Shown here in pieces: positions 2,527 to 31,596 of a DNA stretch of 64,000 nucleotides. Numbering within the stretch: position 1 is the first letter of the stretch; the number at the start of each line of letters is the position of its first letter. The notes beneath the pieces were generated by a model. That model saw nothing but the letters and a program-made list of their open reading frames with translations, was not told the origin of the DNA and did no database searches. Origin of the DNA: Shigella phage ESh25; sequence record ON528735, one strand, 5' to 3'. Made by a program: the position numbers and the translations under genes.

Positions 2527-4340
2527 TGGTGTTTAACCCTATGCATGATTTCTTTATTTTTGCCAAGATTAAATCCGCGCTCGTTCGGATTTCCCAAATA
2601 ACCACATGTTCTTCTTATTGTGTTCATCTTTTTAGGATCAGTTTCTCCACAAATAGAACAAACAAATCCGTTTTCAGTAGGAGTCATTTCATGGGTACTT
2701 CCGCATGTAAAACACTTATCTACTGGCATATTAACACCAAAATAATCTAAATGCTGTGCAGCATAATCCCACACGGCCTCAAGACCTTTTAAGTTATTTT
2801 TCATATCAGGAAGTTCAACATAAGAAATGTGACCACCTGTCGCAATGAAATGATATGGCGCTTCACGAGAAATCTTTTCAAACGGAGTAATATTTTCTTC
2901 TACTGAAACATGGAAACTGTTAGTGTACCAGCCTTTATCAGTAACATCTTTTACGCTTCCATATTTTTCTGTATCGAGTTTACAGAAGCGATAACAAAGG
3001 TTTTCAGCAGGAGTCGAATATAAACTAAAAGCAAACCCAGTTCTTTCAGTCCACTGTTTAAGACGAGCATTCATTTTAGTTAAAATTTCTTGTCCAATAT
3101 CACGACCGACAAGAATATTCAATTCATGAATACCAATGTATCCTAAAGACACTGAACTTCTACCGTTTTTAAATAACTCAATTATGTCGTCATCAGGTTT
3201 AAGACGAACCCCGAATGCACCTTCTTGGTAAAGAATAGGAGCAACAGTCGCTTTAACTCCTTTTAAGGAACTAATTCTACACATCAAAGCTTCAAAACAT
3301 AAATCCATTCGTTCATTGAACAATTCGATAAATTTCTGTTCATTGAACTGTGTTCCAATATAAGAATCTAATGCGATACGAGGAAGATTCAGTGTTACAA
3401 CACCGAGATTATTACGTCCATCAAGAATTTCATTGCCAGTCGAATCTTTCCATACGCTCAAGAAACTACGACAACCCATTGGAGAAACAGGAATAGATGA
3501 GCCAGTGATAGCTTTATTGTTCTTAGCTGAAATAATATCAGGATACATTCTTTTGCTTGCGCACTCTAAAGCAAGTTGCTTAATGTCGTAATTCGGATCG
3601 TCTTTATAAAGATTAACGCCTTCTTCAACGAACATAACAAGCTTAGGGAAAATAGGAGTTATCCCATCACGACCAAGACCTTTAATACGATTTTTCAGAA
3701 TTGCTTTCTGAATCATTCGTTCAGTCCAGTCAGTTCCCGTACCAAATGTAATTGTTACAAAAGGCGTTTGTCCGTTTGAACTAAAGAGAGTGTTTACTTC
3801 ATATTCATAAGCTTGGAATGCATCGTATACATCTTTTTCTGTTTTAGATTGAGCATAATTTAACGCATCAGCGATTTGCCATTTTTCTGCATCCTCAATA
3901 TGTTTTGCATAGGTGCGTTTAACATAAGGAGAAAGTACTTTATCTACATTCGCAAAAGTCGTTCCGCCGTATTGGTGAGAAGCAACCTGTGCAGTAATTT
4001 GTGCCATAATTGCAGTAGCAACGCCAATTGATTTAGGAGTTTCAATCTGTGCATTACCAAGCTTAAATCCGTTCTCAAGCATTCCTTTTAAATCTACTAA
4101 ACAACAATTAGTAAATGGAAGAGCAGGGGAATAATCAATATCATGGAAATGAATAATTCCGCTTTCATGCGCTTTCATAATAAAAGACGGGACCATATTT
4201 TTGGCAATGTGTTTAGACACAATACCAGCCATAAGGTCCCGTTGAGTTGGAAAAACACGAGAATCTTTATTAGCATTCTCGTTTAAAAGGTCTTTATTAG
4301 TTTTATGAATCAATCCTTCAATTTCTTTTTCAATTGTCAT
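2523..4340 (-). CDS. nrdD: anaerobic ribonucleoside-triphosphate reductase (glycyl radical enzyme), continuous ORF without intron
   Basis: 605 aa uninterrupted ORF; C-terminal glycyl-radical region and Zn-ribbon cysteines; recalled near-identity to T4 NrdD. Confidence 0.95.
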   Translation of the reverse strand: MTIEKEIEGLIHKTNKDLLNENANKDSRVFPTQRDLMAGIVSKHIAKNMVPSFIMKAHESGIIHFHDIDYSPALPFTNCCLVDLKGMLENGFKLGNAQIETPKSIGVATAIMAQITAQVASHQYGGTTFANVDKVLSPYVKRTYAKHIEDAEKWQIADALNYAQSKTEKDVYDAFQAYEYEVNTLFSSNGQTPFVTITFGTGTDWTERMIQKAILKNRIKGLGRDGITPIFPKLVMFVEEGVNLYKDDPNYDIKQLALECASKRMYPDIISAKNNKAITGSSIPVSPMGCRSFLSVWKDSTGNEILDGRNNLGVVTLNLPRIALDSYIGTQFNEQKFIELFNERMDLCFEALMCRISSLKGVKATVAPILYQEGAFGVRLKPDDDIIELFKNGRSSVSLGYIGIHELNILVGRDIGQEILTKMNARLKQWTERTGFAFSLYSTPAENLCYRFCKLDTEKYGSVKDVTDKGWYTNSFHVSVEENITPFEKISREAPYHFIATGGHISYVELPDMKNNLKGLEAVWDYAAQHLDYFGVNMPVDKCFTCGSTHEMTPTENGFVCSICGETDPKKMNTIRRTCGYLGNPNERGFNLGKNKEIMHRVKHQ

Positions 4341-27869: not shown

Positions 27870-28145
27870 TTATTTCATATTATTGAAATATTCTTCTGCG
27901 ATTTCGTCGTTATCATGGTAAACTTTAGAAGACAGTTTAACATAACTTTCAGCAGTGAACATGTTAATCACAACCTTTACAGTATACCACTGACCGTCTT
28001 CATTGCCCATTACCGCATAAGTTTCAAACATCGGATGATCAGGACCGATAACTTTAATATCATTCACTGTACGACCGAAATCTTCTGAAACACATTTCAT
28101 AAAGAAGTTGAACAGTTCGCCGTAATTATCCATTTCGTTCTCCAA
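27870..28145 (-). CDS. hypothetical protein (91 aa; e.8 position)
   Basis: Intact ORF downstream of early promoter. Confidence 0.55.
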   Translation of the reverse strand: MENEMDNYGELFNFFMKCVSEDFGRTVNDIKVIGPDHPMFETYAVMGNEDGQWYTVKVVINMFTAESYVKLSSKVYHDNDEIAEEYFNNMK

Positions 28146-28176
28146 GTTGTTTTCTGTATCAGTAGTTGATAGTTGT

Positions 28177-28206
28177 ATAGTACCATGGAAGAACAGGGAT
28201 GTAAAC
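28177..28206 (-). promoter_or_regulatory. T4-type early promoter with conserved leader
   Basis: GTTTAC at 28206-28201, TACTAT at 28182-28177; same 20-mer as at 11968 and 13407. Confidence 0.6.
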
Positions 28207-28336
28207 AGTTTTGTGAAAAAATTTTTAAAAAGTTTTAGGGAATTCTAGGGTCAGGAGGGGCAATTAAAAGATAGGATAATATATTATAAAGGGTAGAAAC
28301 TAAATGATGCCTAGAGAGGCCCGGAAAGGCCTAGAT

Positions 28337-28367
28337 ACCAAAAAGCCCCAACCTTTTGGTCGGGGCT
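28337..28367 (-). terminator. rho-independent terminator (GCCCCGACC-AAAA-GGTTGGGGC plus TTTTT)
   Basis: 9-bp GC-rich stem and T run on minus strand; near-identical copy at 28893-28921. Confidence 0.6.
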
Positions 28368-28374
28368 AAGAATG

Positions 28375-28848
28375 TTATTTGATTTGTTTAGCAGACCAAA
28401 TGTGGTCTTTAATAATTTTTTGGATGTCTTCAACATACTCTAGGTCATGAGCATGTGGGTTATCTTTGAAACTATAAGCACGAGCTAGCTTTTGGCCTTC
28501 AGTTTTGATTACTAAAAGCTCTTTAAGGATAGCTTCATATTTAGAGATAATTCCTTTAACAATATTTTTTTCTTGTGTAGTTTTAGGGTCTGCTTTAGGA
28601 GCAGGTTTACCCGAAGCCTTTGCAAAAGCAGCGCCAGTAGCAACCAAACTTTTCCAGGCCATACTAACTGCATTCCCTGTAAATCCTTCGGCTTTCATAT
28701 CACGAGCAAATTGGAATCGTGATTCATCGGAAGCATCTTTATAGGAATATTTACCCGCGGCAATGGCTGCTTTTGCGACAGCTTGAATTTCGGTGCTAGA
28801 TGCTTCATTTAACACCGCTTCATTTAAAAATTGAGCATATGATTTCAT
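28375..28848 (-). CDS. putative head internal protein with capsid-targeting-like N-terminus (MKSYAQFLNEA)
   Basis: N-terminus resembles the T4 IP capsid-targeting sequence MKTYQEFIAE; late promoter TATAAATA upstream; flanked by duplicated terminators. Confidence 0.5.
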   Translation of the reverse strand: MKSYAQFLNEAVLNEASSTEIQAVAKAAIAAGKYSYKDASDESRFQFARDMKAEGFTGNAVSMAWKSLVATGAAFAKASGKPAPKADPKTTQEKNIVKGIISKYEAILKELLVIKTEGQKLARAYSFKDNPHAHDLEYVEDIQKIIKDHIWSAKQIK

Positions 28849-28884
28849 CTTATTTCCTGTTTTAATTCGTGGTTTTAATATACT

Positions 28885-28892
28885 TATTTATA
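28885..28892 (-). promoter_or_regulatory. T4 late promoter (TATAAATA)
   Basis: Exact TATAAATA on minus strand about 35 nt upstream of the ATG at 28848. Confidence 0.5.
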
Positions 28893-28921
28893 CCAAAAAG
28901 CCCCAACCTTTCGGTCGGGGC
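28893..28921 (-). terminator. rho-independent terminator ending the tRNA/stable-RNA transcript
   Basis: GCCCCGACC-GAAA-GGTTGGGGC hairpin plus TTTTT on minus strand. Confidence 0.6.
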
Positions 28922-28924
28922 TAA

Positions 28925-29238
28925 GCCTTGCGGCAACCTTGTCGGGGTTCCACCTGCTAAGGCAAGTGTTTGTACGAAACGCCGGGATTCGAACCCGGTT
29001 ATTAAGCAGTTGACGCTACTTAATATTTTTAAAAGGCCATATCTCGACCATATCCGAACGTTCCGTCAAAAACGCTACTCGGCTTACGGCAAAGATATTT
29101 CCTCGAATCGATAATTCGGTGCGCCGTTTCTGCTGTGATATAAGGGGACATTAACAAAACATAAAGATTTATTAATGCCAGTCCTTAAACAGGGAACATC
29201 AGTCCGACGACTTACCGGTAGCGACCCGGCTTCTTGTT
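28925..29238 (-). ncRNA. structured non-coding region; includes a tRNA-like element (T-arm and acceptor stem, aberrant body), possible species-1/2-type stable RNA
   Basis: No plausible ORF; CCGGG-TTCGAAT-CCCGG T-arm at 28990-28974 with pairing CGGAACG/CGTTTCG acceptor-like stem but no canonical anticodon arm. Confidence 0.3.
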
Positions 29239-29314
29239 TGGTCGAGGCAGTAGGAATCGAACCTACGACCTAGGACTTAGAAGGTCCTTGCTCTTCCTTC
29301 TGAGCTATGCCTCG
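29239..29314 (-). tRNA. tRNA-Arg: tRNA-Arg (anticodon TCT)
   Basis: Cloverleaf folded by hand: 7-bp acceptor, anticodon loop CTTCTAA, T-loop TTCGATT, encoded CCA. Confidence 0.9.
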
Positions 29315-29318
29315 GATT

Positions 29319-29393
29319 TGGCGGACGTGATAGGATTCGAACCTATAACCAATCGCTTAACAGGCGATCGCTCTGCCATTGAGCTACACATCC
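29319..29393 (-). tRNA. tRNA-Asn: tRNA-Asn (anticodon GTT)
   Basis: Cloverleaf: acceptor GGATGTG/CACGTCC, anticodon loop CTGTTAA, T-loop TTCGAAT, CCA encoded. Confidence 0.85.
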
Positions 29394-29397
29394 AAAT

Positions 29398-29484
29398 TGG
29401 TGGGGAGTGGTGGAGTCGAACCACCCGAGTCGCAATGACAATGGATTTACAGTCCACACCGCTACCTCTACGGGATAACTCCCC
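29398..29484 (-). tRNA. tRNA-Tyr: tRNA-Tyr (anticodon GTA), long variable arm
   Basis: Cloverleaf: acceptor GGGGAGT/ACTCCCC, anticodon loop CTGTAAA, variable arm GTCATTGCGAC, discriminator A, CCA encoded. Confidence 0.85.
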
Positions 29485-29493
29485 AAATTAATT

Positions 29494-29568
29494 TGGTGGC
29501 CCTGGGTGGAATTGAACCACCATCTGGCGATTATGAGTCGCTTGCTTGAACCTTCCAGCTACAGGGCC
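29494..29568 (-). tRNA. tRNA-Ile: tRNA-Ile (anticodon CAT, lysidine-type) or Met
   Basis: Cloverleaf: acceptor GGCCCTG/CAGGGCC, anticodon loop CTCATAA; T4 tRNA-Ile carries a CAU-type anticodon. Confidence 0.85.
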
Positions 29569-29569
29569 T

Positions 29570-29646
29570 TGGTGCTGATTGACGGAATCGAACCGCCGAC
29601 CTTCTCATTACAAGTGAGTTGCTCTACCTACTGAGCTAAATCAGCA
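29570..29646 (-). tRNA. tRNA-Thr: tRNA-Thr (anticodon TGT)
   Basis: Cloverleaf: acceptor TGCTGAT/ATCAGCA, anticodon loop CTTGTAA, T-loop TTCGATT. Confidence 0.9.
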
Positions 29647-29650
29647 AAAC

Positions 29651-29740
29651 TGGCGGAGGCGATAGGATTTGAACCTATGAGTCGCCGGAGCGACTGCCGG
29701 TTTTCAAGACCGGTGCATTAAACCACTCTGCCACGCCTCC
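29651..29740 (-). tRNA. tRNA-Ser: tRNA-Ser (anticodon TGA), long variable arm
   Basis: Cloverleaf: acceptor GGAGGCG/CGCCTCC, anticodon loop CTTGAAA, long variable arm. Confidence 0.9.
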
Positions 29741-29746
29741 AAATAT

Positions 29747-30355
29747 TTATATATTGTTAATTTGATTTAGAATTCTTTTTGCTTGAGTATGACTTACGCC
29801 AATATGCTTAGCATATTTAGATAATTCACCCCGCTTAGAAAAATCATATAATTTAGAAATTTCTATTCTTCTTTTTCTTTCATCCGCAGAAACTTTTGCT
29901 TCGTTTGCTTTTGCTATTTTACGTTTAGCTTCTTGAGAATGAGTTTTACCAGCAAAGCCATTTTTCATTAATCCATTTGAAGACCATCCTTTTAATTTTC
30001 CGTTAGAATGTGCCTTTTTAACACCCAATGAAATTAATTCGCGTTGCTGATCTGTCATAGGATAATTATTTATATGATCCCATCCACCTTCACCTCCAAG
30101 TTTTAAATTATACACATCTGGTCTATTTAAAAACTCTTCTGTGACAATATTTTTCTCGGCTTCAAGCATAGATTCTTTATCATCAAAATACTCTAATATT
30201 TCTTTAGAAAAATTTTCTATGCCATATTTATCTTGGGCTCTTTTTAATAATTTACCAGAACCCATATATCCATCATCTAAATTTTCGGTAGAATGCACAC
30301 CAATATAAATTTTATTATTAATTTTATTTGTTATTTTATAAAGATAAAAATGCAT
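29747..30355 (-). CDS. segB: GIY-YIG homing endonuclease (SegB-like) embedded in the tRNA array
   Basis: GIY-YIG motif (YLYKITN...IYIGVHS) near N-terminus; likely start ATG 30355 with AGGGA Shine-Dalgarno (longer ORF runs to 30397). Confidence 0.8.
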   Translation of the reverse strand: MHFYLYKITNKINNKIYIGVHSTENLDDGYMGSGKLLKRAQDKYGIENFSKEILEYFDDKESMLEAEKNIVTEEFLNRPDVYNLKLGGEGGWDHINNYPMTDQQRELISLGVKKAHSNGKLKGWSSNGLMKNGFAGKTHSQEAKRKIAKANEAKVSADERKRRIEISKLYDFSKRGELSKYAKHIGVSHTQAKRILNQINNI

Positions 30356-30400
30356 ATCAGTCCCTAATAAAGAACTGAGCGTCTCACGACGAGTCATAAA

Positions 30401-30475
<75 letters not shown>

Positions 30476-30479
30476 AAAT

Positions 30480-30566
30480 TTGGTGCGAGAAGTGGGACTC
30501 GAACCCACAAGGAAATCATTCCGCAGCATTTTAAGTGCTGTGCCTTTACCAATTTGACCATTCTCG
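30480..30566 (-). tRNA. tRNA-Leu: tRNA-Leu (anticodon TAA), long variable arm
   Basis: Cloverleaf: acceptor GCGAGAA/TTCTCGC, anticodon loop CTTAAAA, T-loop TTCGAGT, CCA encoded. Confidence 0.9.
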
Positions 30567-30567
30567 C

Positions 30568-30640
30568 GCTGGGAATAAAGGACTCGAACCTTTGCATCTA
30601 GCAGTCAAAGTGCTATGCCTTACCAACTTGGCTAATTCCC
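30568..30640 (-). tRNA. tRNA-Gln: tRNA-Gln (anticodon TTG), CCA not encoded, 1 nt from tRNA-Leu (dimeric precursor)
   Basis: Cloverleaf: acceptor TGGGAAT/ATTCCCA, anticodon loop CTTTGAC; 3' end abuts tRNA-Leu 5' end. Confidence 0.9.
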
Positions 30641-30738
30641 AATTATTAACAAAGGCTCTCAAACAAGAACCCTTGATGATAGAGGGTATTAATCAGTGCG
30701 GTATGAGTTAATAATAACAAATAGTTCTTAAAGCATAT

Positions 30739-31026
30739 TTAACATTTATGATAATACATATTTACGATGCATTCAAGACCCAAAGGATTCTTGAAAATAT
30801 CATATTCAAGAAGACCTTTTTCTGTTTCAATAAAGAAATCAAAATTTACTGTATTAAATTTACGGTCTTCCTTCACTAATTTAACTTGAGAAGATGAACG
30901 GTCAATGTAAACTTTTTCAACTTCAAAACATGTTAAAATGCCATAATCATCAATCAAGGCTTTAGCTGCTTCTTGATCATATTTATATCCATTTTCAATG
31001 GATGATACTTTTGCATAAAAAATCAT
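30739..31026 (-). CDS. hypothetical protein (95 aa)
   Basis: Last gene of a three-gene early operon upstream of the tRNA array. Confidence 0.55.
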   Translation of the reverse strand: MIFYAKVSSIENGYKYDQEAAKALIDDYGILTCFEVEKVYIDRSSSQVKLVKEDRKFNTVNFDFFIETEKGLLEYDIFKNPLGLECIVNMYYHKC

Positions 31027-31028
31027 TA

Positions 31029-31418
31029 TCAGCCTTCATCAACAATAGTATGAGTGTGGGCATTTACAATTTGCCACCAATCAAAGCGATTAGAACCATA
31101 CATTGGTTTGTTCTCATTTTCTTTGATAATGTCACGGAGTTCATCTTCGGTAGCGGCTTTCGCGATTAAATCAGCATATCCACCGCGAGGATAATAATTA
31201 TCACCTGCAAAAAGTAAAAAGTTTGGTTTAATGTTATTGAACTCTTCAAGAGTAATAACTGTTCCACCAGGTTGAACAATATCTACATAACTATATCCTA
31301 ATTTTTGAGCAGCATCTACTGCTTCAAGCAAGGTATCATGAGCCCATCCAATTTGGCAATCTGGCTTTTCAGATGGATTAGCCTGATAATCTGCATATAC
31401 TTTATACATTTTACTCAC
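31029..31418 (-). CDS. hypothetical protein (129 aa)
   Basis: Intact ORF; no recognisable motif. Confidence 0.55.
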   Translation of the reverse strand: MSKMYKVYADYQANPSEKPDCQIGWAHDTLLEAVDAAQKLGYSYVDIVQPGGTVITLEEFNNIKPNFLLFAGDNYYPRGGYADLIAKAATEDELRDIIKENENKPMYGSNRFDWWQIVNAHTHTIVDEG

Positions 31419-31596
31419 CTTTAGAAATTTTATCCATAACGATAGCGATTAAACCAATTAAAAATGCTACTACAAGCGAAAACACATTTTCTGCTGTAGT
31501 TAATAATCCGCATATAAATCCAACAAACATTGAAAAACTAAAAGCAGAAGCAGAAATTGCAATAGCAACATTTCGAATTAATTCACAGCGTTTCAT
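31411..31596 (-). CDS. small membrane protein (about 61 aa)
   Basis: ATG at 31596 after promoter/leader; two hydrophobic helices. Confidence 0.5.
   Translation of the reverse strand: MKRCELIRNVAIAISASAFSFSMFVGFICGLLTTAENVFSLVVAFLIGLIAIVMDKISKGE

Follow-up and report, generated by a model that had tools for sequence, protein, structure and literature searches.

Shigella phage ESh25 carries, inside its tRNA array, a gene for a free-standing GIY-YIG homing endonuclease of the SegB family that stands exactly where related T-even phages have tRNA-Pro. The window analyzed here is a 64,000-nt stretch of this genome (sequence record ON528735), and positions given without another source refer to it. 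The gene lies on the minus strand between tRNA-Gly and tRNA-Ser. Its catalytic half groups with the segB genes of T4 and T6 and its DNA-binding half with a lineage residing between tRNA-Gly and tRNA-Pro in other phages, which points to a mosaic origin. The favored explanation, held at a probability of roughly 0.7, is that this mosaic SegB-family endonuclease occupies the tRNA-Pro slot and would home by cleaving the allele that lacks the gene.

Endonuclease genes in the tRNA clusters of T-even phages, the association of such genes with tRNAs across phages, and the exchange of domains among them are known (PMC2330249, PMC13096335, PMC10448857). A literature search, including a full-text search on SegB-like proteins and tRNA, found no description of the chimera, its position between Gly and Ser, or its exclusivity with tRNA-Pro.

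A cassette in place of tRNA-Pro

By its sequence relationships the window is from a Tequatrovirus of the RB51/ECML-134 type. A megablast search with the tRNA region (29100–30800) matched 953 phage records, nearly all of them T4-like Tequatrovirus of enterobacteria, and the top full-length matches, at 96–98.5%, are to ECML-134, SholemSchwarzbard, RB51, RB68, HY01, and similar phages. ARAGORN identifies nine tRNA genes in the window, each single-copy and all on the minus strand, with a 661-nt gap after the third; it finds no tRNA-Pro anywhere in the 64 kb. The arrays, in transcript order and with inserted genes in parentheses, are as follows:

T4: Gln Leu Gly Pro Ser Thr Ile (segB) Arg rnaD rnaC
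T6: Gln Leu Gly Thr Met Tyr (segB) Arg
T2L: Gln Leu Gly Pro Ser (trna.1) Met Tyr Asn Arg (trna.2) rnaD rnaC
RB3, without an endonuclease: Gln Leu Gly Pro Ser Thr Met Tyr Asn Arg rnaD rnaC
Window: Gln Leu Gly (endonuclease gene) Ser Thr Met(CAU) Tyr Asn Arg

The window array is the RB3 array with a single change, and the features on either side of that change are these:

30402–30641, minus strand: upstream sub-array Gln-Leu-Gly (ARAGORN and Rfam tRNA matches)
30402–30475, minus strand: tRNA-Gly(UCC), with an encoded CCA at its end (ARAGORN, Rfam)
29742–30396, minus strand: endonuclease cassette, 655 nt
29651–29740, minus strand: tRNA-Ser(UGA) (ARAGORN)
29239–29740, minus strand: downstream sub-array Ser Thr Met(CAU) Tyr Asn Arg (ARAGORN)

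Homology to T4 breaks off at 29741 and restarts at 30397. In a base-level alignment with RB3, the cassette stands in for 81 nt of the gene-less allele, consisting of ATTTA, tRNA-Pro, and CT (3207–3286 of the T4 locus, L001). The tRNA-Gly and tRNA-Ser genes are unaltered at the cassette junctions, and the upstream sub-array is 94–99% identical to those of T4, RB3, and T2L as far as CCA+ATTTA.

A sequence-only reading of the window had put tRNA-Pro at this place in T4 and suggested that a tRNA was possibly displaced. T4 does have Gly Pro Ser there, as do T2L and RB3; the alignment shows that T4 does not share the window arrangement, and the cassette substitutes exactly for tRNA-Pro. In a collection of about 50,000 phage records, contiguous T4-type Gly-Pro-Ser occurs in 448, the window-type gene in about 55, and both in none. 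A chimeric query that joined the 3′ end of the gene to tRNA-Pro retrieved no record with the two in reach of each other, the 30 best gene-carrying genomes have no second tRNA-Pro match anywhere, and no Tequatrovirus intermediate with the gene beside tRNA-Pro was found in the collection. The RB51 annotation likewise lists nine tRNAs and no Pro, and KIT03 also lacks it. The gene and tRNA-Pro are allelic alternatives. Because Gly-Pro adjacency is present in Tequatrovirus, Jiaodavirus, Tulanevirus, and Karamvirus, loss of tRNA-Pro is the derived state. The T4/T6-type segB cassette, for its part, occupies the tRNA-Asn place of RB3 and the window and brings a different tRNA-Arg.

The tRNA-Pro gene is also altered in T6 (AP018814, locus L005, about 3643–3728), where the annotated tRNA-Thr is a tRNA-Pro 5′ end (CTCCGTGTAGCTCAGT) fused to a tRNA-Thr body. 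A deletion between common TAGCTCAGT boxes appears to have taken the rest of Pro, the whole of Ser, and the start of Thr, and the two halves of the hybrid's acceptor stem appear not to be complementary.

An intact endonuclease gene

The longest open reading frame (ORF) between tRNA-Gly and tRNA-Ser (29747–30397, minus strand) encodes 216 amino acids, and there is no other long ORF there. Its stop codon (29747–29749) is 6 nt from the 5′ end of tRNA-Ser, in agreement with the sequence-only reading. The spacing of 3 nt given there for the tRNA-Gly side does not hold, as the ATG at 30395–30397 is 4 nt after the encoded CCA and is probably not the start. Translation likely begins at Met15 (ATG 30353–30355), because RB51 annotates an identical protein from there, because T6 SegB, which has been purified and is active, opens with the same MHFYLYK, and because the Klebsiella homologues have a shifted frame and a stop upstream of that methionine. 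An AGGGA also lies 5 nt before this ATG, while no Shine-Dalgarno-like sequence precedes the one at 30397. The working coding sequence begins 46 nt downstream of tRNA-Gly:

29747–30355, minus strand: coding sequence from Met15, 202 amino acids plus stop, 100% identical over 202 amino acids to the RB51 "truncated SegB-like protein"
30068–30355, minus strand: residues 1–96, SegB-lineage catalytic domain of GIY-YIG type (from nucleotide comparison with T4/T6 segB and fold match)
29750–30067, minus strand: residues 97–202, DNA-binding half with a flexible linker, a NUMOD3-like motif (GFAGKTHSQEAKRKI), and a terminal helix-turn-helix (GVSHTQAKRILN) (phrog_16521 match, model)

Pfam, PHROG, and fold matches all bear out a GIY-YIG homing-endonuclease gene between the two tRNAs, as the sequence-only reading proposed. 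In Pfam, GIY-YIG (PF01541, E = 6.3e-6) and SegE_GIY-YIG score above their cutoffs, curated in the case of the former, and NUMOD3 falls just under, at 20.1 bits against 20.4. PHROG 314, "homing endonuclease," matches at E = 1.5e-55. An AlphaFold model made from an alignment of 25 relatives has a mean predicted local distance difference test score (pLDDT) of 79, and its N-terminal domain matches I-TevI's catalytic domain (1MK0, 1LN0) with a probability of 1.00 and a template modeling (TM) score of 0.63–0.66 on the target. A sequence search of the PDB gave no match at E ≤ 1; the link to I-TevI comes from the fold search alone. The model has low-confidence linkers at residues 90–96 and 122–134 (pLDDT below 50) and confident helices at 141–201, with residues 160–200 above 90, and the C-terminal region gives weak fold matches only, to helix-turn-helix DNA binders. 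Residues Y6, Y17, G19, E67, and N83 are invariant among the 25 relatives; mutating Y17/G19 kills the activity of T6 SegB (PMC13096335). The protein has several traits of a GIY-YIG homing endonuclease, namely, the catalytic domain, the linker and C-terminal DNA-binding region, and presence or absence at one locus.

The label "truncated" in RB51 implies a different possibility, that of an inactive relic in which a decaying endonuclease gene fills the gap of a deleted tRNA-Pro. The label looks misleading: although the protein is 19 residues shorter than T4 SegB, it is collinear with its Klebsiella counterpart and equal to it in length (202 amino acids). The NUMOD3 score just under the Pfam cutoff would suit a relic, as would the persistence in the T2L array of trna.1, a partial derivative of the C-terminal module. 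However, the gene has no frameshifts or internal stops, its catalytic residues are intact, and its C-terminal helices are modeled with a pLDDT above 90. The ratio of nonsynonymous to synonymous divergence (dN/dS) against the Klebsiella Jiaodavirus KP13MC5-5 is also well below 1, at 0.13 in the N-terminal half and 0.30 in the C-terminal half; selection therefore maintains both halves. Decay is very improbable, and the gene is best explained as a free-standing homing-endonuclease gene of the SegB family, GIY-YIG in type and intact.

Two lineages in one gene

The description "SegB-like" in the sequence-only reading stands for the catalytic half of the protein and fails for the C-terminal half. 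BLASTP aligns T4 SegB at 83% over the first 117 residues of the 216-amino-acid form, near-identical from its residue 21 on, and gives no alignment beyond residue 117 of that form (~100 residues). Residues 7–94 of the domain are essentially 100% identical. At the nucleotide level, 30067–30341 (275 nt) is 98.5% identical to T4 segB, and the leader and N-terminal domain are 98–100% identical to T6 segB, with one amino-acid difference from T6 SegB. Identity to segB collapses exactly after codon 96, to about 45–55% at the nucleotide level past 30067, and for residues 97–202 neither BLASTP nor nucleotide comparison detects any similarity to the T4/T6 SegB C terminus.

The C-terminal half has other relatives. 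Its 108 terminal residues are at least 98% identical in about 55 phage records, and the half is 82% identical in KP13MC5-5, about 70% in Mineola-type Jiaodavirus, and 39% in Aes012 (Aeromonas). Annotated maps of KP13MC5-5, Mineola, and Aes012 place the gene between tRNA-Gly and tRNA-Pro, and junction sequences show a conserved leader starting directly after the tRNA-Gly CCA in the window, Mineola, and KP13MC5-5. Homologues from Jiaodavirus/Tulanevirus (P0002–P0004) have 202 amino acids, are 77–78% identical at 100% coverage, and are collinear with the window protein including the helix-turn-helix. For the N-terminal half, synonymous divergence (dS) amounts to 1.65 from KP13MC5-5 and 0.10 from T6; for the C-terminal half, it is 0.385 from KP13MC5-5. 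The contrast in dS between the halves means that they differ in history. On these comparisons the catalytic half belongs with the segB of Tequatrovirus and the recognition half with the Gly|Pro lineage, and the gene is a mosaic from recombination between two tRNA-array endonuclease lineages.

Distribution, signs of mobility, and possible target choice

The gene is retained in more than 10 named Tequatrovirus species. No genome with both the window-type gene and a T6-type segB is found among 792 matching records. A genome with both cassettes would hold 330-bp identical repeats, from which loss of the tRNAs between them would be predicted. The window and RB51 copies of the gene are 99.1% identical. 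The block from tRNA-Ser to tRNA-Arg in the window, however, is 91.1% identical to that of gene-carrying RB51 and 98.2% identical to those of gene-less RB3 and T2L. The left flank shows yet another grouping, and one gene allele is found in different flanking haplotypes. Such discordance would fit homing or recombination boundaries at nuclease genes alike (PMC10448857).

This pattern bears on the possibility that the enzyme is a domesticated driver of recombination, whose breaks would promote tRNA amplification or turnover and escape from tRNA-cleaving defenses, a role compatible with homing. T6 SegB, with the same leader and catalytic domain, cuts in the phage's own tRNA genes and is needed for tRNA-Tyr amplification under pressure from Septu, a tRNA-targeting defense (PMC13096335). 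Purifying selection on both halves and retention in so many species would also suit domestication. Against it, the nine single-copy tRNA genes of the window show no tandem amplification, the gene took away a tRNA and added none, and the presence/absence polymorphism, exact allelic replacement, and discordant flanks form the classical signature of a selfish mobile gene. Domestication as the main role is distinctly unlikely.

A scan of IMG/VR returned distant family members only, at 38–65% identity. The isotypes flanking them are diverse, so Gly|Pro is not a family-wide site. Several of the distant loci (L021/L023, L024, L046, L053/L058) have same-isotype tRNAs on both sides (Gly|Gly, Met|Met, Glu|Glu, Ser|Ser). 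The paired tRNAs are diverged rather than recent duplicates, with 41–69 identical columns, and at L021 the downstream tRNA-Gly lacks the GGTTCGAAT motif.

The enzyme could instead have the same specificity as T4/T6 SegB. It would then recognize the T-psi-C motif (GGTTCRANTCC ... CCAR) of tRNA genes generally and cut many of them, and its C terminus and position would be incidental. The catalytic domain is virtually identical to that of T4/T6 SegB, a NUMOD3-type motif lies at the equivalent place in both proteins, and GGTTCRANTCC occurs in eight of the nine tRNA genes of the window; relatives also sit in tRNA arrays whatever the isotype (49 of 80 IMG/VR loci; likewise PMC13096335). What has no detectable SegB similarity, however, is the C-terminal stretch of 106 residues, and in I-TevI-type enzymes it is the C-terminal half that carries site recognition (PMC2330249, discussion). 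The window also keeps tRNA-Asn with an intact preferred SegB site, at which a SegB-specific enzyme would cut its own genome, whereas the segB carriers T4, T6, and PST-type phages lack tRNA-Asn. In addition, no genome has both gene types, and the tRNA that is lost differs between them. Shared specificity is therefore unlikely.

Candidate expression signals and a proposed model for homing

Candidate signals for expression of the gene are found in its leader, upstream of the array, and at two late-promoter-like octamers:

30356–30401, minus strand: 5′ untranslated leader, 46 nt, including the in-frame and probably unused ATG at 30395–30397 (sequence comparison)
30357–30378, minus strand: predicted leader hairpin, pairing with the Shine-Dalgarno AGGGA (minimum free energy −14.5 kcal/mol, z = −2.2; same stem in a terminator scan)
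30711–30735, minus strand: middle-promoter-like site upstream of tRNA-Gln, with MotA box TGCTTTA (30729–30735), 12 nt, and TATTAT (30711–30716), read from the sequence
29744–29751, minus strand: putative late promoter TATAAATA, the exact T4 consensus octamer, overlapping the endonuclease stop codon 4 nt before tRNA-Ser
30067–30074, minus strand: second putative copy of TATAAATA, in the gene exactly at the breakpoint of the SegB-like and non-SegB halves, also present in T6

The leader is 98% identical to the T6 segB leader and 89% to those of the Klebsiella phages. The hairpin stem has survived in T6, KP13MC5-5, and Mineola, where three changes alter one side of a pair and no compensatory pair is seen. 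The T4 segB transcript has a hairpin over its ribosome-binding site (PMC2330249), and the window hairpin is consistent with a translational hairpin of that kind, although it is not proof of one. In T4, a middle promoter at the place corresponding to 30711–30735 drives transcription of the tRNA cluster with segB in it (PMC2330249), and the site in the window may be a middle promoter as well. A sigma-70 scan left that site unscored and found nothing near the gene above shuffle expectation. In a pattern search, the TATAAATA octamer has 20 sites in the window against 10.3 expected, and none of 100 shuffles reaches 20. Descent of the leader from a decayed tRNA-Pro 5′ fragment, considered with a MAFFT alignment of GCTCAGTT, was rejected, as 43–50% of shuffled leaders score equally against 22 tRNA genes.

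Under the favored explanation, the gene would be part of the tRNA precursor transcript, which would start from the putative middle promoter upstream of tRNA-Gln, and a hairpin covering the ribosome-binding site would keep translation low. In a mixed infection, the C-terminal half would bind a site in the Gly-Pro-Ser interval of a gene-less genome, and the SegB-type catalytic domain would make a double-strand break. Repair from the gene-carrying genome would then copy the cassette along with flanking tRNA markers and remove tRNA-Pro. The most economical placement of the target would be across the tRNA-Gly/tRNA-Pro junction, which the cassette splits, since both the window arrangement and the Gly-gene-Pro arrangement of the Klebsiella phages would then be immune. 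A target wholly within tRNA-Pro would account for the loss of Pro in Tequatrovirus and not for the Klebsiella case. In T4 × T2L crosses, T4 SegB is inherited at nearly 100% (PMC2330249). By analogy with T4 SegB, and from the discordant flanks around a 99%-conserved gene, the enzyme may have driven inheritance of the tRNA set, as the sequence-only reading suggested.

Several points weigh against this explanation. Insertion does not explain the deletion of tRNA-Pro in Tequatrovirus and by itself needs no such loss, because tRNA-Pro survives beside the gene in Klebsiella and Aeromonas phages. Vertical descent combined with recombination of the flanks could also give the discordance, since the Tequatrovirus copies are nearly identical. 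Residence in tRNA arrays of any isotype may stem from a generic preference instead of a site specific to Gly/Pro. The putative equivalent of I-TevI R27, R39, is present in the window, T4, and T6 proteins, and its alignment column varies among the 25 sequences. Finally, the predicted hairpin lacks compensatory changes, and its z score is only −2.2.

Other features of the tRNA region

The remaining features of the tRNA transcription unit that were located are the following:

30568–30641, minus strand: tRNA-Gln (ARAGORN, Rfam)
30481–30567, minus strand: tRNA-Leu (ARAGORN, Rfam)
29494–29568, minus strand: tRNA-Met(CAU) (ARAGORN)
29319–29393, minus strand: tRNA-Asn, the same in sequence as its T2L counterpart, where T4 SegB prefers to cut
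about 29118–29237, minus strand: homologue of rnaD, a T4 stable RNA (coordinates transferred from T4, approximate)
about 28973–29111, minus strand: homologue of rnaC, a T4 stable RNA (coordinates transferred from T4, approximate)
28899–28922, minus strand: terminator hairpin 3′ of rnaC (terminator scan)

The tRNA with the CAU anticodon is Met according to ARAGORN, T2L, and RB3 and is Ile in RB51, where the label follows T4 tRNA-Ile(CAU) by analogy; it may be Met or a lysidine-modified Ile. At the blastn threshold, alignment with the T4 tRNA-Ile gene covers only its first ~20 nt. The rnaC/rnaD homologues (28973–29237, after tRNA-Arg; species 1 and 2 of T4) are 92.9% identical to T4 and 98.7% to RB3. 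No Rfam 15 family detects them, and Rfam matches on 28000–31500 are limited to the tRNAs and sub-threshold chance matches. The two stable RNAs and the terminator hairpin are the end of the tRNA transcription unit.

Beyond this end, a 157-amino-acid ORF (28375–28848, minus strand) is an insertion relative to T4 and RB3. It is flanked by 36-bp direct repeats (28335–28370 and 28890–28925), the second of which includes the terminator hairpin, and the RB51 annotation of the same ORF reads "flanked by 34 bp imperfect direct repeat." A TATAAATA octamer lies at 28885–28892, 36 nt upstream of its ATG. Close relatives carry extra pieces elsewhere in the array (loci L002, L003, and L093 against window 29238–29320). 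SholemSchwarzbard and KIT03 have a tRNA-His between Asn and Arg that is absent from the window. RB51 has a 351-nt ORF between tRNA-Arg and rnaD (ORF141, also T2L trna.2) that is not in the window array, and KIT03 has an additional ORF upstream of tRNA-Gln. In general, the array is a hot spot of small insertions.

Implications

A broader reading, offered tentatively and at somewhat less than even odds, is that a SegB catalytic module was naturally re-targeted by a swap of its DNA-binding half and that the T-even array holds alternative, mutually exclusive endonuclease cassettes. One cassette would remove tRNA-Asn and swap tRNA-Arg, one would remove tRNA-Pro, and a third, the T2 trna.1 derivative, would sit in the place of tRNA-Thr, with each deleting or splitting the tRNA interval that bears its own target. 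Competition among endonucleases, and not codon usage, would then set the tRNA content of T-even phages, and T4/T6 would be open to cleavage by the enzyme of the window phage, as the window phage would be by theirs.

Phage tRNA genes counter tRNA-cleaving host defenses. Under Septu pressure, T6 SegB remodels the tRNA locus (PMC13096335). Exchange of the recognition half together with replacement of a different tRNA would show endonuclease turnover editing phage tRNA repertoires directly. It would also give two natural enzymes that share a catalytic domain and differ in their DNA-binding half; comparing them could separate the contributions of these parts to target choice and could be useful for GIY-YIG engineering. 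A correct description is also a practical gain because dozens of deposited genomes carry the gene under names that do not agree, including "truncated SegB-like," "segD," and "group I intron endonuclease."

Comparison with known systems

T4/T6 SegB is the closest match for the front of the gene. The catalytic domain is shared (98.5% nucleotide identity to T4, one residue different from T6), and T6 segB has the same leader, which follows immediately on the CCA of the preceding tRNA. The genes share a tRNA transcription unit, a hairpin over the ribosome-binding site (predicted in the window), and presence/absence polymorphism among T-even phages. The likeness ends at residues 97–202, and the positions differ: the window gene is at Gly|Ser, T4 segB at Ile|Arg, and T6 segB at Tyr|Arg. 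As T4/T6 segB lies just upstream of tRNA-Arg, the window gene is not its positional orthologue. The T4/T6 cassette removes tRNA-Asn and brings its own tRNA-Arg variant, whereas the window cassette removes tRNA-Pro. T4/T6 SegB recognizes a 27-bp T-psi-C/CCAR site, preferred in tRNA-Asn (PMC2330249), and the unchanged site in the window would argue against a shared specificity. With a tRNA-Asn identical to the T2L gene (PMC2330249), the window phage should be able to receive T4/T6-type segB during mixed infection.

The Klebsiella endonucleases are the closest match for the back. KP13MC5-5 has the same architecture, the same 202 amino acids, and a C-terminal half that is 82% identical, and both it and Mineola share the leader and the 5′ junction directly after tRNA-Gly. 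Divergence is far greater in their catalytic domain (the dS of 1.65 given above), and the Mineola protein has a different linker segment. Unlike the window, where tRNA-Ser follows after 6 nt, the Klebsiella and Aeromonas phages keep tRNA-Pro immediately downstream, and in Mineola the stop codon is inside tRNA-Pro.

I-TevI, from the T4 td intron, resembles the window protein in overall plan, with an N-terminal GIY-YIG fold (the fold-search match above), a linker, a NUMOD3-type element, and a terminal helix-turn-helix. It is also controlled by a translational hairpin, of the kind predicted for the window gene. I-TevI is intron-encoded, whereas the window gene is free-standing; the catalytic domains are only about 25% identical, and no zinc finger was detected in the window protein.

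T2L trna.1 and its phrog_16521 relatives from Citrobacter phage Ursula and Enterobacter phage KMB20 share only the C-terminal module:

L008 (T2L), 584–985: trna.1
L010, 1315–1794: phrog_16521 relative
L011, 1270–1734: phrog_16521 relative

These proteins have a NUMOD3-like motif and GVSHTQARR helix-turn-helix at 41–45% identity to the window protein (41% for T2L trna.1) and are likewise encoded inside tRNA arrays, at Ser|Met in T2L and Asp|Met in Ursula and KMB20. They differ in having a Cys-containing N-terminal region and no GIY-YIG domain. Classification as HNH enzymes was considered and not adopted, given no Pfam match and only weak PHROG HNH matches, and they are left as possibly HNH-like. 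The 2008 SegB paper lists T2L trna.1 as an "ORF of unknown function" (PMC2330249); from its module and its place, it is probably another tRNA-array endonuclease or a derivative of one.

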